A stretch of 64,000 nt of DNA from a virus, in the IMG/VR virus record IMGVR_UViG_3300044614_002195, positions 32,001 through 96,000 of that record; one strand, 5' to 3'. Shown here piece after piece: positions 8,274 to 62,262 of this stretch. The first letter of the stretch is position 1, and each line of letters opens with the position of its first letter. Under the pieces are notes generated by a model. The model saw only the letters and a program-made list of their open reading frames with translations. It had not been told where the DNA came from and made no database searches. Made by a program: the position numbers and the translations under genes.

Positions 8274-10595
8274 ATGGAAAATAAATTTAAAAATATCAAT
8301 GAACTGCAGCGATTAGTTATGCAGAAAGCAGCAGGCGCGGAGTTAAACCGTTATTATGACGCAGCCAATGACGAGAATGCAAAGATTGGGTTACCTCAGA
8401 CAGGCAAGTTACCTGCAAGGGTCAGAGCAAAAAACCCAGCAAAAGCACGCATACCAGTCACCCAAGCTGCAGCACCAACTCCCGCGCCGGCCCCTGCACC
8501 AGCTCCTGCACCCGCGCCAGCCCCTGCACCAGCTCCTGCACCCGCGCCAGCCCCTGCACCTTCAGCAGCTACAAGCAGCGCAGCAAAGCCTAGACGCACC
8601 CAAGCAAGGAATAAACCGAGCGGAGCTTCACAAGCAATGCCTCCGGCGGCTCAATTTGAACAAAGAATGCTATCCAGGGGAGGCAAGGCAGCGTTAGGAC
8701 TTGGAGCAATGCAGGGCGCTTATGATCTATGGAACGCAGACGATAAAGTCGAGGGATTAGGTCAGGCTGTCGGAGATGTACTTCCAGGAGCAGCGATGTA
8801 TGGATTAACTAGACCAGGTACCGGAGCAGGCGCATCCAATATGGCCGGACGCGCAGGCAAAGCCTTAAGTAATTTATCACAACGTACAGGCTTAACGGAA
8901 ATGGCGAAGGATATAAATCAAAATGCTATAGCTCCAGCGATGAAGAAAATCACCCCAAGCCTTCAGGCGGCAGGGCAGACCATTAGAAATAAAATGCCTG
9001 CAGGAGCATCAACTGTCGCAAATAAAATTATGCCTAATCTAGGTAGAGCTGCAGGCTTTCTCGGAAAGAGATTAATTCCGGGACTTGGCGCAGGTATGTC
9101 CGGCGCCTCAGCTGTCAGTAGATGGAAAGAAGGCGACCGCCTCGGCGCATTAATGGACGCCGGACTGGGGGCAGCAAGCTTTATTCCAGGAGTAGGAGGA
9201 GCTGTAAATTTAGCAGGCTCAGGATTAATGGGACTTAGAGACAGTTATAGAAATAAAAATGCACCAACTCAAGAATTACCCAAAACTGGAGCATTCAACC
9301 TATACAAGCACGCCATATCGAATTTTAGGCGAGATATAGAAGATCCGTCTACAGGATATAATTCTGACTTACATCAAGCCATAGCGCCTATGGTTTCGCC
9401 AAATGTTCAAAATTTACCTGCAGGCTCTCCAGACGCAAAAAGAATTAGCGGGCTACAGGGAGATTTAAGAAAAGGCCTTGTAGGCCTTGAGTATCTAACA
9501 GGATTAAAGAAGAATACTGGCGAATCTTTTTATGACGAACATCCAGCTGAGGCAGTAGTAACCGATTTGCTAGGCAATTCCCCATTGATCGGCGCTGGGG
9601 TAGCTGGAGGAGGAATTGGATTAAATTATTTAAGACAGGCAAAAAACATGAGGATGACACAACCCTCAGCTATGTCTAGAGAGGGAAATATACAGGACCC
9701 TAGCAACTCTGCAAATCTCTTAGATCCTGCTAAAGGAAATTTACGAGCAGATGTTGGTCGTGTTTTCGGTGATGAAGAAAATGTTACTGCACGCTTAAAG
9801 ATATTAGATAGACTCAATAAGAATGCACCAGATAAAGGTTTCGAAAAACAATATCAACGTTTGGCTGACGCAAAAGCAGCTATAGAAAGAAAGAACAGTC
9901 AGATTTTAAACGAGCTTAATTCAAGCCTGGAATCTTCAAAAATCAGTGAAAAAGATATCAAGCGAATACAGACTAGAATTAATGCAATTGAAAAAGCTCA
10001 AGCTCACCAGACTGGGGCTATAGATAAGGATATAAAGGCTTTACTCACAAAGGCAAAAAGCTCTAGAGGGGCCTCAGCTTTACCTGAATACGCTAATTTT
10101 CATGAGTCTCTTCAAAAAGCAAATCGCCAGGGAGGACTTAAGAATTACATAGGAGAGGGTCTTCACGATTATCTCGGAGACGGAGAAATTGCTAGCTGGA
10201 TTAAGAAAAATATTCTTCCCGGAAGAGATCAAGCTATAGGAGATCTTCTTGAAAGGCATAAGTTGACAGGACAAAACCCTCATTTCGATGACATGCTCAT
10301 CAAGGATATTATAAGAGAAAACAAAGGAGGAGCACCACTTCATCCTGGGTTTAACGAAACAACCTTAAGGCGTATAGCCGACCCTGAGCACCAGTCTTCA
10401 GGATTGAGAAGAAGCTTTAGCAAGATGAAACTTCCTCTAGCTGCCGGCGCAGGGATTGCAGCAGGAGGCACAGGGCTTTATTATCTGCTCAAAGCAATAC
10501 AGAATCAAATGCATCCGAAAGAAAAAACCGATGAGTGGAAGAGAACTCTCTTAAAAGCTCGCGGAGATTTTGACGCAGCAAATAGAATAGGATAA
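8274..10595 (+). CDS. Putative internal/ejection protein with (AP)n linker and Gly-rich hydrophobic helices
   Basis: 773 aa; Ala-Pro repeat; segments such as IPGLGAGMSGASAVSRWKEGDRLGALMDAGLGAASFIPGVG and C-terminal LAAGAGIAAGGTGLYYLL. Confidence 0.6.
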   Translation: MENKFKNINELQRLVMQKAAGAELNRYYDAANDENAKIGLPQTGKLPARVRAKNPAKARIPVTQAAAPTPAPAPAPAPAPAPAPAPAPAPAPAPAPSAATSSAAKPRRTQARNKPSGASQAMPPAAQFEQRMLSRGGKAALGLGAMQGAYDLWNADDKVEGLGQAVGDVLPGAAMYGLTRPGTGAGASNMAGRAGKALSNLSQRTGLTEMAKDINQNAIAPAMKKITPSLQAAGQTIRNKMPAGASTVANKIMPNLGRAAGFLGKRLIPGLGAGMSGASAVSRWKEGDRLGALMDAGLGAASFIPGVGGAVNLAGSGLMGLRDSYRNKNAPTQELPKTGAFNLYKHAISNFRRDIEDPSTGYNSDLHQAIAPMVSPNVQNLPAGSPDAKRISGLQGDLRKGLVGLEYLTGLKKNTGESFYDEHPAEAVVTDLLGNSPLIGAGVAGGGIGLNYLRQAKNMRMTQPSAMSREGNIQDPSNSANLLDPAKGNLRADVGRVFGDEENVTARLKILDRLNKNAPDKGFEKQYQRLADAKAAIERKNSQILNELNSSLESSKISEKDIKRIQTRINAIEKAQAHQTGAIDKDIKALLTKAKSSRGASALPEYANFHESLQKANRQGGLKNYIGEGLHDYLGDGEIASWIKKNILPGRDQAIGDLLERHKLTGQNPHFDDMLIKDIIRENKGGAPLHPGFNETTLRRIADPEHQSSGLRRSFSKMKLPLAAGAGIAAGGTGLYYLLKAIQNQMHPKEKTDEWKRTLLKARGDFDAANRIG
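8472..8561 (+). repeat. 30-bp-period tandem repeat encoding (AP)n
   Basis: cccgcgccagcccctgcaccagctcctgca at 8481, 8511 and partially 8541. Confidence 0.95.
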
Positions 10596-59284: not shown

Positions 59285-59458
59285 ATGAATAAAATTGAAA
59301 AAATCCAAGAGATGGCGGAAGGATTGCCTACCTCTGAGATTGATAAATTGCTTGAGCAGCTAAACCTGCTTAAGCAGGTAAGAAAGAGCACCCATACGAG
59401 AGTAAAGGCCAGGGTAGTACTGGCGAGCAATTCCATTCATCCAGCTTGTAAATCATGA
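59285..59458 (+). CDS. Small ORF (57 aa) not in the ORF track
   Basis: MNKIEKIQEMAEGLPTSEIDKLLEQLNLLKQVRK...; ATGA overlap with the next gene; follows promoter. Confidence 0.6.
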   Translation: MNKIEKIQEMAEGLPTSEIDKLLEQLNLLKQVRKSTHTRVKARVVLASNSIHPACKS

Positions 59459-59724
59459 ATACTTATTACAGACTGAGTCTATTGACTGCGCTAGTCACGC
59501 TAGCCATATCCTTCTACACTGCAGGGTATATCCACGGCGTAAAAACCGCAGAAAAAGGCTGGCAGGCAAGATTAATCTCGGCGGACTACGCAGAGTACAA
59601 CAAACGCACAGGCGGATGGGAACTGCGTAACATGGATGAAGTTGTCACATCGGCACTAATCCTTGGAAGAGGCAAACTTCCAGAAGAGAAAGAGAAGATC
59701 GAGCATTCTTTACTCAAGAAATAG
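59455..59724 (+). CDS. Small membrane-anchored protein
   Basis: Hydrophobic N-terminus LSLLTALVTLAISFYTAGY. Confidence 0.65.
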   Translation: MNTYYRLSLLTALVTLAISFYTAGYIHGVKTAEKGWQARLISADYAEYNKRTGGWELRNMDEVVTSALILGRGKLPEEKEKIEHSLLKK

Positions 59725-59750: not shown

Positions 59751-59759
59751 TGGTATAAT
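59751..59759 (+). promoter_or_regulatory. Extended -10 promoter TGGTATAAT
   Basis: Perfect TGn-TATAAT; no + strand gene between it and the terminator. Confidence 0.7.
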
Positions 59760-59765
59760 ACTATA

Positions 59766-59892
59766 GAACGGAAACGTTTCTGCTGTCGCATGACAGCTAG
59801 CTGACCAGGCAGCTAAAAATAACCTGGATATTTTCTGGTGGTAACGGGTTCCCTCTCCCTGCGAGCATCTTGCTCCAGGGAGAGGGTTTTTT
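59766..59892 (+). ncRNA. Candidate structured small RNA, family unknown
   Basis: Bounded by promoter and terminator; four contiguous hairpins, GAAA tetraloop, complementary loops CCAGG/CCTGG; only a 4-codon ORF. Confidence 0.6.
59851..59892 (+). terminator. Intrinsic terminator
   Basis: CCCTCTCCCTG / CAGGGAGAGGG 11-bp stem plus inner GAGCA/TGCTC, then TTTTTT. Confidence 0.9.
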
Positions 59893-59907: not shown

Positions 59908-61188
59908 TTAGCTATTGGCTTTTACGATCTTTACGTTATGACATGTAAGCTGAATCATTGTAAGCAACTGCCTTACGTACTTTTCATTTATGAAGGGTAT
60001 ACCTAAGCCTAAAGACAAAAACATTTTACGGATACCTTTAGTGAACAAGAAGCATGACGTAAGATACTTGTCTTCCATCTCGAAAGGCACAGCTGAATCT
60101 TCAAAATAAACCATACCGCACCAAATAAACTCTTCTTCATTTTTTTTACGTATCTCGGTGATATCTAGAGTAAAGTTTGTGAGCATCTCTTCTTCATTTC
60201 TCTTAATTAGAAAATAAGCTCTATCTCTTTTAACGTATGTTTTTCCATGTACATTAAATTGCTGTTCTCTGGTTTTCATCCAGTACGACATAAGCTCTTG
60301 TCCGCTGTTTTTCTCCAGCTCCTGCACTTGCTGGTAATTCAGCATAGCTACATGGTTCTTAAGGTCTTCGCTGCCCTGCTTACCAAGCATAAGCTCTTTA
60401 ATGTCTTCAGAAAATTTAGAGTGATTACTCTCGCTCCATATCTTAATTAGCTGCTCTGTTGTAAGCATTTCAGATAAGGATACAGGAGAATTGTTCCAAT
60501 AGTCGTTTTTATAATTCCAAGTATTTCCCGCTTTTATTTTTAGCTCATTCATATCCCTAACAATCTCCACTCCCTGTCTACCGTACCAGCCATACTCACC
60601 ATTCAAAAAAACATTCTCTCTTTGATTGATGTCAGCGATTCTTGCCACCTCTAATGAGCATATATGTTTGGGAGAGCAAAACGACGGCACTACTAGGCTT
60701 TTTTTGTACTTATACTTGTTCTCCAGTTCAAGTCTAGGGAAAGCCTTTATAACCTTCTCTGACAAGTAACCAAATCTATTATTAAGTAATGCAGGCATAC
60801 CCATCTCTTCTAGTACTTCAGTAAAGTATGCTAAGCCATCTTTATGTCTAACTCTAGCAGCCTGGGCCTCCTGTACACTCAGTAACCATGCAGACTGAAA
60901 CTGCATAATTCTGGTTTGGTTTTTAAAAAGTTGCTTTTCAGCATACTCGCTGTATGGTAAATTAAAATCAAAGCAATCTGAAAAGTCTTTGCAAATTATT
61001 CCATATAACCTAGACCAATCAGATATAGGGAAAAAATCAAAAATATTTCCAATAAAGTCTGAATTTTTAGATCTAGCATACCAACCAAACAAAGGAACAC
61101 GTATAAAGTCATATTCTGACGTATTTGCCCCTAGCTTACCTACCACACTGGGTAGGTTTATTTTAGAATTGAACGAATTTAGTAACAT
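59908..61188 (-). CDS. Hypothetical protein, possibly primase/replication-associated (probable start ATG 61188)
   Basis: Only substantial minus-strand ORF; C-terminal LTNFTLDITEIRK..FIWCG loosely recalls domains attached to phage primase-helicases; weak. Confidence 0.55.
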   Translation of the reverse strand: MLLNSFNSKINLPSVVGKLGANTSEYDFIRVPLFGWYARSKNSDFIGNIFDFFPISDWSRLYGIICKDFSDCFDFNLPYSEYAEKQLFKNQTRIMQFQSAWLLSVQEAQAARVRHKDGLAYFTEVLEEMGMPALLNNRFGYLSEKVIKAFPRLELENKYKYKKSLVVPSFCSPKHICSLEVARIADINQRENVFLNGEYGWYGRQGVEIVRDMNELKIKAGNTWNYKNDYWNNSPVSLSEMLTTEQLIKIWSESNHSKFSEDIKELMLGKQGSEDLKNHVAMLNYQQVQELEKNSGQELMSYWMKTREQQFNVHGKTYVKRDRAYFLIKRNEEEMLTNFTLDITEIRKKNEEEFIWCGMVYFEDSAVPFEMEDKYLTSCFLFTKGIRKMFLSLGLGIPFINEKYVRQLLTMIQLTCHNVKIVKANS

Positions 61189-61196
61189 AGTATAAT
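61169..61196 (+). promoter_or_regulatory. Promoter TTGAAC-16-TATAAT
   Basis: -10 ends 10 nt before ATG 61207, overlapping the start of the divergent gene. Confidence 0.5.
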
Positions 61197-61206
61197 AAGA
61201 ATAAAT

Positions 61207-62262
61207 ATGAAAATTGCATTTGACCAACAGACCGACTACTCAGGTAAACAATTGTACAGCATGCTTTCCGGGGTAGATGTCCCTGAATATGTAAAAACTG
61301 CAGAAGTCGAAGATGCTCACGAGCTTAGACAGTTGCCTAAGACTGCTTTCGCTGACCCTGAAAGAATGATTTACCCTATTAACACTCCTGCTAGGGTTTA
61401 TGTGAGTAACGCGCATTTTGTTAATAAGAAAGCTGATATCACCAAACTATACGGTGAAGACTACTCTAGTCAATTAGAAAACAAGATCGCTGAAGCTGCG
61501 GAAGTGTTCGGAATCTCAGATGATCTCAGCAATTATAATAGTGAGCTTAACGTAAAGATTGCTGCAGACTATGAGGAAAAGTACATGGTGGACTTTGAAG
61601 CCCCAGGAATGGATGCATCCATCAAACTTTTCCCTGTGAAGACAGCATCAGATTTGAGCGAATCCGCTGAAACTTTCGCTAAAAATATCAGTAATTTCCC
61701 GTTCGCGGTAAGAATTAAATCTGCTGAGAATTTCGTAAAGGCTGCTGGTGAACTAGGGGTAGACGATATGCCTGAGCTTATCCTTAAATACGCAGGCCTG
61801 TACTACCCAGACTTGATTAACCTCGACCAGGAACTCTGGCGCAGATCTACAAAATTGGCTAACGAAGCGCATCATGAAATCTATGACAAGATCCGTGATG
61901 ACCTTTCTAATATGACTAGTGTTTCGGAGGTCATGAAGGTCGCGGAAACCTGTTTCAATATTGAAAATATGGAAGGCCTTTACGACAACGTTAAAGTAGC
62001 TCAGATTCTAGGTGACCCTGTGGACAGAATTTTCACAGAGCCCGTCACCAAGATTGCTGGCGACCTTAGCTATGTTGAAGTTCATGGCGATAAGTACAAG
62101 CTCGACGATCTTACAAAGATCAGCAAGGATAAGTACGAAGAAGCATTCGGAGACTGCGGGATTGACCCTGCAGACCCTGTGAAGATTGCGGATATTCTCC
62201 CCACCATGCCCAGAAGCGATGTAAAGCTTCTCGAGGAAATCACAGGTTTGAGACCTATCTAA
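61207..62262 (+). CDS. Putative abundant virion protein with K-x-A motifs
   Basis: LPKTAFADPERMIYPINT motif; YVKTAE, VKIAA, VKTAS, TKLAN; codon usage visibly like the MCP. Confidence 0.65.
   Translation: MKIAFDQQTDYSGKQLYSMLSGVDVPEYVKTAEVEDAHELRQLPKTAFADPERMIYPINTPARVYVSNAHFVNKKADITKLYGEDYSSQLENKIAEAAEVFGISDDLSNYNSELNVKIAADYEEKYMVDFEAPGMDASIKLFPVKTASDLSESAETFAKNISNFPFAVRIKSAENFVKAAGELGVDDMPELILKYAGLYYPDLINLDQELWRRSTKLANEAHHEIYDKIRDDLSNMTSVSEVMKVAETCFNIENMEGLYDNVKVAQILGDPVDRIFTEPVTKIAGDLSYVEVHGDKYKLDDLTKISKDKYEEAFGDCGIDPADPVKIADILPTMPRSDVKLLEEITGLRPI

Follow-up and report, generated by a model that had tools for sequence, protein, structure and literature searches.

A hairpin-pseudoknot RNA module tied to phage tmRNA operons in one clade of freshwater phages and carried as a separate transcription unit in one genome

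Little is understood of phage tmRNAs and of the small RNAs that accompany phage tRNA genes. A tmRNA carries a resume codon and a tag frame ~11-12 nt after a pseudoknot, the frame ending in a degradation signal. T-box RNAs capture the NCCA of a tRNA 3' end with a UGGN discriminator. Type III antitoxins (ToxI) are small pseudoknotted RNAs encoded as tandem ~34-36-nt repeats beside an endoribonuclease toxin gene, and some phages carry mimics of them. We know of no function assigned over the decades to RNA C and RNA D of phage T4. These two are small structured RNAs of unknown role that are encoded and co-transcribed with stable-RNA genes (PMC3014915). The pseudoknot in the gene 32 mRNA of T4 nucleates protein binding (PMC3014915), and in E. 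coli the pseudoknot PK1 of tmRNA can be replaced (PMC2481249).

Here we describe a compact, covarying pseudoknot module that accompanies tmRNA genes in one clade of lake phages. The window, i.e. the whole stretch of 64,000 nt that was analysed, corresponds to bases 32001-96000 of an IMG/VR phage record of 198,289 bp with 40% G+C. An earlier note on this DNA had proposed a novel small RNA made of four contiguous hairpins, set between an extended -10 element and a strong terminator and held together by kissing loops or an H-type pseudoknot; the sequences that it quoted are all present at their coordinates.

The transcription unit and its fold

The stretch 59751-59892 on the plus strand is a complete transcription unit that runs from a consensus promoter to a strong terminator and would give an RNA of ~127 nt, with transcription from the promoter P2 predicted to start near 59766 (Table 1). 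Both flanking signals were confirmed. A simple promoter/terminator scanner listed neither of them, which we assume to reflect the missing -35 element of P2 and an interrupted terminator stem that falls outside the rules of the scanner. The terminator doubles for the convergent 439-aa gene, the end of which is at 59908. MTAS is the sole ORF in the ~127-nt stretch, in agreement with the coding capacity proposed before.

Table 1. Features of the transcription unit and of the upstream promoter (positions are those of the window)
Feature	Position	Strand	Description
Promoter P1	59222..59230	+	TGGTATAAT; upstream of the small ORFs 59285-59458 and 59455-59724
Promoter P2	59751..59759	+	TGGTATAAT; extended -10 (TG-G-TATAAT), TG at 59751-52, TATAAT at 59754-59; no -35
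Hairpin 1 (5' leader hairpin)	59766..59780	+	GAACG-GAAA-CGUUU; -3.3 kcal/mol
Hairpin 2	59782..59797	+	GCUGUC-GCAU-GACAGC; -8.1 kcal/mol; abuts the pseudoknot
H-type pseudoknot	59798..59827	+	S1, L1, S2 and L3
S1 (hairpin 3)	59798-803 with 59810-815	+	UAGCUG/CAGCUA, 6 bp; hairpin -6.4 kcal/mol
L1	59804	+	one A
S2	59805-809 with 59823-827	+	CCAGG/CCUGG, 5 bp; duplex -6.7 kcal/mol
L3	59816-822	+	AAAAUAA, 7 nt, A-rich; L2 is 0 nt
U-rich trailer	59828..59835	+	A-UAUUUUC (A, then U-rich)
G/U-rich box	59836..59850	+	UGGUGG-UAAC-GGGUU; predicted single-stranded if the pseudoknot forms
Intrinsic terminator	59851..59892	+	interrupted stem, 11 bp + 5 bp (16 pairs), then UUUUUU; -30.6 kcal/mol

P2 is an extended -10 promoter of the host type and belongs to a consensus class of the phage's own. 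The nonamer TGGTATAAT, which P1 contains as well, is present in nine copies in the 198-kb genome, all of them on the plus strand (genome positions 1012, 6064, 8427, 91222 (= window 59222), 91751, 136342, 145189, 157282 and 163277). Most copies are followed by a hairpin within a few bases on the 3' side, and mostly they continue as AUAUUGA or AUUAUGA. Since the nonamer is recurrent, confined to one strand and mostly trailed by a hairpin, the set looks like a promoter class of the phage with a built-in 5' stabiliser. Equivalents of hairpin 1 lie directly 3' of P2 in the relatives L010, L018 and L011 and behind most other TGGTATAAT promoters of the genome; hairpin 1 is a generic 5' element that is not specific to this RNA. 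P2 is kept at the equivalent position in relatives, where it drives a tmRNA. The second tRNA cluster of the genome is also driven by one TGGTATAAT promoter.

The earlier note had considered that the RNA might be nothing but the 3' UTR of the operon at 59285-59724. It does have a promoter of its own, P2, yet no terminator was found between that operon and P2; because the ORFs lack a terminator on their 3' side, the RNA probably doubles as the end of their transcript, and transcripts from P1 should, as far as the sequence tells, run through it. The first of the two ORFs encodes a helical protein of 57 aa with the C-terminal motif HPxCK(S/T), and the second a protein of 89 aa with an N-terminal hydrophobic stretch. 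No family is known for either; both are conserved in L004/L010 and L027, where the layout of P1 and two ORFs is repeated, and both are absent in L038.

With regard to the fold, three of the four proposed hairpins held (hairpins 1 to 3, Table 1). The fourth (AAAAUA/UAUUUU) did not: its energy is positive (+1.1 kcal/mol), it is missing from the minimum-energy and centroid folds, and relatives do not conserve the helix. The kissing-loop topology was rejected on these grounds, hairpin 4 being both unstable and unconserved, and the topology is that of the H-type pseudoknot with a 1-nt L1 and an A-rich L3 that the earlier note had offered as its other choice. The complementarity of the two loops, on which both topologies were built, was borne out and covaries in relatives (see below). 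The RNA of 127 nt folds at z = -5.2, and at z = -2.5 when the terminator is removed. Conventional folding, which cannot draw pseudoknots, chose S1 in some lineages and S2 in others, indicating that each helix is favourable alone. The pattern of GC-rich S1 and S2 combined with an A-rich L3 has a single site genome-wide (198 kb, both strands). No second copy of the module was found near the genome's own tmRNA and tRNA islands; the module is single-copy in the genome, and there are no tandem repeats at it.

The RNA had previously been left without a match to a riboswitch, ribozyme, tRNA or SRP consensus, and database searches likewise gave no match. Rfam returned no family in the window at the gathering threshold and nothing relevant at E <= 10 (three local searches), ARAGORN found neither a tRNA nor a tmRNA in the window, and blastn detected no similarity in 50,697 phage records (distant mode) or in 72,556 plasmids.

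The locus and the module in related phages

To compare the locus between phages, the 238-aa gene upstream and the convergent 439-aa gene downstream were used as anchors, and ~20 distinct related contigs from freshwater viromes and metagenomes were retrieved. A tmRNA gene lies beside the 439-aa gene in 15 of the 17 relatives checked with Rfam and ARAGORN, often together with tRNAs and in some cases with group I introns, and more distant relatives have tRNA arrays at the locus. The closest distinct relative, L010/L004 (86% identity in the 439-aa protein), has the same order as the window, i.e. the 238-aa gene, P1, the 57-aa ORF, a small membrane ORF, P2 and the leader hairpin. There P2 is followed by tmRNA, a spacer hairpin, UGGUGG, hairpin 2, the pseudoknot, tRNA-Met and the terminator, with only 8 nt and no terminator between the end of the pseudoknot and tRNA-Met in L010. 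The window genome has its tmRNA at genome positions 134682-135073 with tRNA-Met immediately 3' (the pair spans 134682-135154), 43 kb from the module and within a tRNA cluster. Taken together, the operon order in L010 and the displaced tmRNA and tRNA-Met show the 127-nt unit to be the shell of a tmRNA operon around the hairpin and pseudoknot only, and the stand-alone form to be a derived arrangement special to the window genome.

In relatives, the module is encoded in the sense direction of the tmRNA/tRNA operon, where it comes after the tmRNA and is the last or next-to-last element before the terminator. A structured RNA other than a tRNA on the sense strand of a stable-RNA operon was found in seven relatives, and in the window the operon is reduced to the module alone. 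In L012, L015 and L020 the tmRNA is followed directly by the terminator module, without a pseudoknot. The earlier description as a novel small RNA is therefore in need of division: the promoter and terminator of its own and the new motif stand, whereas in relatives the element is part of the trailer of a tmRNA/tRNA operon and does not stand alone.

The 439-aa gene (window 59908-61227, minus strand) always borders the RNA island. Its product is 71-86% identical within the clade and 33-59% beyond it; no Pfam or PHROG family was found for it, and its AlphaFold model is poor (mean pLDDT 47.7). PHROG and Pfam searches were uninformative for the genes neighbouring the module, none of which gave a known family, and neither SmpB nor a CCA-adding enzyme was found in the genome. 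Outside the window, an identical 19-nt leader, GUGUGACACUGGGAGAGAC, stands before the tmRNA (134650-134681) and tRNA-Asn (135406-135433) of the same genome; it may be a processing signal, or a recombination site that brought the tmRNA into the tRNA cluster.

Using nhmmer, a custom pseudoknot scanner and a covariance model, we recovered the module in five other lineages (L010, L014, L018, L022 and L038); L031 and L039 have divergent forms, in which S1 is 3 bp long and L3 carries an inserted hairpin. S1 appears as UAGCUG/CAGCUA, CGACUG/CAGUCG, AGACG/CGUCU, UGACUG/CAGUCA and AGGUG/CAUCU, and S2 as CCAGG/CCUGG, CCGAG/CUCGG and CCAGA/UCUGG. The check for covariation in homologues that had been suggested earlier came out positive, both stems being compensated across a six-row alignment, in which standard pairs occupy 90.9% of the cells as compared to 27-41% when the partners are slid by 1-3 columns. 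Changes on both sides were seen in 7 of 11 pairs (S1, 5/6; S2, 2/5), and none of 500 shuffles reached the observed covariation score, although six distinct sequences give limited statistical power; it should also be pointed out that the pairing and covariation figures are an undercount because MAFFT shifted the partner strand of L014 by one column.

Further features point to the same fold. The module of the window and that of L010 have only 12 identical nt, and still both stems are perfect, which argues for selection on structure. G-U pairs are confined to the sense strand, indicating that the fold belongs to the RNA of this strand. Single positions are conserved as well: L1 is a purine, L3 contains an A-run, S2 is followed by an A in 7 of 8 lineages, and a U-run lies another 2-4 nt away. 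In every pseudoknot-bearing relative a hairpin of unrelated sequence is located 0-2 nt 5' of S1, and the flanking spacer can no longer be recognised, whereas S2, L1 and the A that follows S2 are retained.

On a tree of the 439-aa protein, which resolves the ingroup poorly, 8 of 16 ingroup lineages have the module and all four outgroup lineages lack it. Two scans of IMG/VR with IUPAC patterns gave only the known clade plus chance matches in GC-rich DNA. Among the matches listed from a pattern scan of bacterial genomes (at least 120), five had a 5-bp S1, all of them resembling coincidences in coding sequence, and neither a prophage nor a host came out of a protein-based scan of bacterial genomes. 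Being absent from half of the clade, from the more distant relatives and from IMG/VR outside the clade, the module is dispensable. These results show that the hairpin and pseudoknot are a conserved RNA module of one clade of uncultured freshwater phages with genomes of ~170-205 kb, and that they form a small new RNA motif family which is tied to phage tmRNA operons and restricted to that clade.

The elements 3' of the pseudoknot, namely 22 nt that are first U-rich and then G/U-rich, and the terminator, are less specific. A U-rich run follows the pseudoknot in all relatives, and U-rich trailers are also found after all eight tRNA/tmRNA genes of the window genome. The trailer of the pseudoknot, UAUUUUCU, is identical to that of tRNA-Thr, and in L010 trailers of the CUUUCGG type lie on both sides of tRNA-Met; such common trailers suggest that RNA modules are gained and lost by recombination at them. 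A comparable G/U-rich box and a long terminal hairpin occur in most of 14 aligned relatives, with or without a pseudoknot. As box and terminator are thus common to pseudoknot-less relatives, specificity and conservation are limited to the ~55 nt of hairpin 2 and the pseudoknot.

Structured RNAs are unusually frequent in these phages. A second pseudoknot motif, here called PK-B, was found in the same RNA islands of at least seven lineages, including contigs detected by pattern scan alone (L018 ~5640-5480 (-); L027 ~3990-3850 (-); L011 ~5520-5410 (-); L039, L031 ~4420-4370 (-); L123/L134; L130). It consists of AAGUCGUGAGU, a hairpin, S1, a loop ending in (U)CUCCA, S1', the invariant linker CGYCUAACCACGAM and a GGAGA that pairs to the loop. 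Both of its stems covary (S2 as UCUCC/GGAGA, ACUGC/GCAGU and GCUGC/GCAGC), a UCGUG near its start could pair with the CACGA of the linker, and it has no match in Rfam. An insert of ~380 nt lies between the module and the terminator in L039 (~4230-3850 (-)) and L031 (~4245-3900 (-)); it is closed by a 22-bp stem of CGGAGGUAGAGUUCGGUAGACC with its complement, has no Rfam family at the gathering threshold and may be a large structured RNA. Group I introns stand beside the tmRNA in L013 (5909-6118) and L017 (5957-6166), a 99-nt tRNA match in L014 (4833-4931) probably contains an intron, L021 has a true Pistol ribozyme at 8520-8587, and abiF-motif RNAs occur among the relatives; L012, L018, L044 and L047 are listed with these carriers of structured RNAs.

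Candidate roles of the module

On balance, and with modest confidence, we favour the view that the module acts in trans: the stand-alone unit and the conserved fold point to a stable small RNA that binds a factor of tmRNA/tRNA processing or of ribosome rescue. The promoter, leader hairpin and terminator of an old tmRNA operon would now express the module alone in the window genome. S1 and S2 would stack coaxially with the A-rich L3 in the groove of S1, and the resulting compact, nuclease-resistant fold may accumulate as a stable RNA of small size; in relatives it would be set free by 3' processing of the tRNA type, and in the window genome it is probably transcribed directly. The module could then serve as a binding surface in trans for a host or phage factor that takes part in tmRNA/tRNA processing or ribosome rescue. 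We infer that it is not an antisense regulator, a riboswitch or a ribozyme. None of the roles suggested earlier (protein decoy or antitoxin mimic, RNAP/sigma regulator, packaging RNA) gained support from the analysis.

Action in trans is favoured because the transcript in the window keeps no other cargo that could be acted upon in cis, but the constant position of the module by the 3' end of its operon also fits a cis role. The small size and the dispensability of the family weigh against the favoured view too, as do the lack of SmpB and of a CCA-adding enzyme in the genome and of any known family among the neighbouring genes. A cis-acting element and a functionless relic are the main rivals. 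The first of these, to which we assign a low though appreciable probability, would be a maturation or stability element (one that blocks 3' exonucleases, for instance, or directs the cuts of RNase E or RNase P between modules) of which the window copy is a leftover after tmRNA and tRNA-Met moved away. The module being always inside the operon in relatives, last or next-to-last before the terminator, is in keeping with such an element, and so are the U-rich trailer that it has in common with tRNA genes and the absence of the module from half of the clade; in L010, an RNase P cut at the tRNA-Met 8 nt further on would leave the module at a 3' end. The window copy, however, has an intact consensus promoter and terminator of its own and no cargo, and its stems are perfect despite the strong divergence from L010. 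Moreover, the 3' end is already protected by the terminal hairpin, and tmRNA operons do without the pseudoknot in L012, L015 and L020.

The same window copy could be a neutral relic, i.e. a rearranged tmRNA-operon spacer that ended up as the 3' UTR of the 59285-59724 operon. A patchy distribution, a unit that resembles an L010-type operon minus tmRNA and tRNA-Met, and the open passage from the upstream ORFs to P2, where no terminator intervenes, are all what such a remnant might look like. We nevertheless regard lack of function as improbable, since the stems show compensatory changes across six canonical lineages in which the neighbouring protein is 71-86% identical, and since the spacer has become unrecognisable while S2, L1 and the A after S2 persist.

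The strand next to hairpin 2 suggests a more elaborate form of a role in trans. In L014, L018, L038, L031 and L039 an invariant UGGUGGA directly joins an upstream hairpin to hairpin 2, with no spacer on either side, and its counterpart in L010 is UGGUGGC. UGGUGGA is exactly complementary to UCCACCA, the sequence in which both tmRNA and tRNA-Ala end, with the U of the G3-U70 pair included, and in the minimum-energy fold of L010 the strand pairs with the 3' end of the tmRNA just upstream. TGGTGG is ~5x enriched in the RNA islands, with some copies inside tmRNAs. By direct reading of the sequence, the UGGUGG of the window is likewise complementary to a 3' CCACCA end, but it is displaced to 59836-41, 3' of the pseudoknot and without flanking helices, and none stands before hairpin 2; the window could therefore hold a reduced or decaying version. 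The pairing of UGGUGGA with UCCACCA should be taken as a lead only, since with an invariant 3' end covariation is no test of it. One may speculate that UGGUGGA captures the UCCACCA of tmRNA or tRNA-Ala in a 7-bp coaxial helix, as in a T-box, while the PK1-like pseudoknot docks on a partner or rescue factor, so that the phage tunes or senses the charging of ribosome rescue, with the window carrying a stripped-down version expressed alone; we hold a device of this kind to be quite improbable.

Capture of a tRNA 3' end is the principle that the UGGUGGA of the relatives would share with the T-box. The RNA itself was rejected as a T-box: there is no Rfam match, Stem I with specifier, antiterminator or regulated gene, and its hairpins have 5-6 bp. 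The box GGUGGUAAC is T-box-like in this genome only and is not conserved. Another stand-alone small RNA built from island parts was seen in L020 (~5965-5805 (-)), where a ~140-nt unit upstream of the tmRNA, with its own TGGTATAAT promoter and terminator, contains hairpin-UGGUGGA-hairpin without the pseudoknot.

Three further explanations fare worse. That the RNA is an anti-defence decoy, for example a mimic of a type III antitoxin pseudoknot, is very unlikely. Type III antitoxins are indeed small and pseudoknotted, phage mimics of them exist, and abiF-motif RNAs occur elsewhere in the relatives. Against this, the module is single-copy without tandem repeats, resembles no antitoxin family in Rfam and is constantly associated with tmRNA and tRNA genes, not with defence genes. 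An actual type III antitoxin was rejected for want of tandem repeats and of any such family among the neighbouring genes, the module being present in one copy.

A degenerate or variant self-cleaving ribozyme of the pistol type is still harder to believe. The L018 copy matches the 5' part of the Pistol model (RF02679, model positions 1-26) with 19.9 bits and E of 0.07-0.19, and a true Pistol ribozyme exists in the relative L021. The layout of a P1 hairpin, a loop pseudoknot and an A-rich linker is found in both L018 and the window; the Pistol 5' domain and the module are alike in having a hairpin with a 6-nt loop that pairs downstream, followed by an AUAAAUA-type linker which is identical in L018. 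But the score does not reach the gathering cut-off (34.5 bits), and the module lacks the P2 helix, the P3 hairpin and the G-U cleavage site, the 3' strand of S2 following directly after the linker. The window had no Pistol match at E <= 10, and the best score in its own genome (9.1 bits) lies elsewhere.

Least probable of all is a ligand-sensing pseudoknot riboswitch in the style of preQ1-I, SAM-II or guanidine-III that controls the terminator, for although the H-type shape, the A-rich third loop and a terminator downstream are present, no family matched even at E = 10, the loop is fully paired and L2 is absent (hence no evident ligand pocket), inspection revealed no alternative, antiterminator pairing with the terminator, only the end of the convergent gene lies downstream, and in L010 the module is followed by a tRNA after 8 nt with no terminator in between. 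PreQ1-I and other pseudoknot riboswitches were rejected likewise (no family match at E <= 10, L2 of 0 nt and no gene downstream on this strand).

The work defines a compact, covarying pseudoknot as a companion of phage tmRNA genes in a single lake-phage clade. The one genome that expresses the module alone, from a strong promoter, is a clean construct for studying the function of this companion RNA. Should the module bind a factor of ribosome rescue or tRNA processing, phages would be seen to control host translation at a further, new level; otherwise it adds one more to the small structured RNAs that are confined to single lineages.

Comparison with described RNAs

The RNA is neither a tmRNA nor a mini-tmRNA (RF00023), as ARAGORN and Rfam found no alanine-acceptor tRNA-like domain or CCA end. 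There is also no resume codon or tag: in the window the pseudoknot is followed only by UGG-UGG-UAA, and frames and stops are not conserved in relatives.

In relatives, the module is like T4 RNA C and RNA D in being a structured RNA other than a tRNA within a stable-RNA operon. Unlike them, the module of the window has its own promoter, and the partner gene of the module is a tmRNA. No homology to T4 rnaC or rnaD was detected (blastn in distant mode, 50,697 phage records). The gene 32 mRNA pseudoknot of T4 and T2 is, like the module, an H-type pseudoknot of a phage, with two coaxial stems followed by an unstructured U/A-rich strand. The gene 32 element, however, belongs to an mRNA leader and controls translation, whereas the module has no ORF on its 3' side and no gp32-like partner known.

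The architecture of the module is closest to that of tmRNA PK1. It differs from PK1 in being located outside the tmRNA, without a tRNA-like domain, resume codon or tag, and in having an L2 of 0 nt, and the covariance model of the module matched no tmRNA PK1 in the loci. The loop of the L038 module reads UUAAAAAU and is followed by CCUGGAC, and PK1 of the L018 tmRNA reads UUAAAAAU-CUGGAC. Both are H-type pseudoknots with an S1 of 5-6 bp, an S2 of 5-6 bp and an A-rich third loop, and both are encoded in the same operon.
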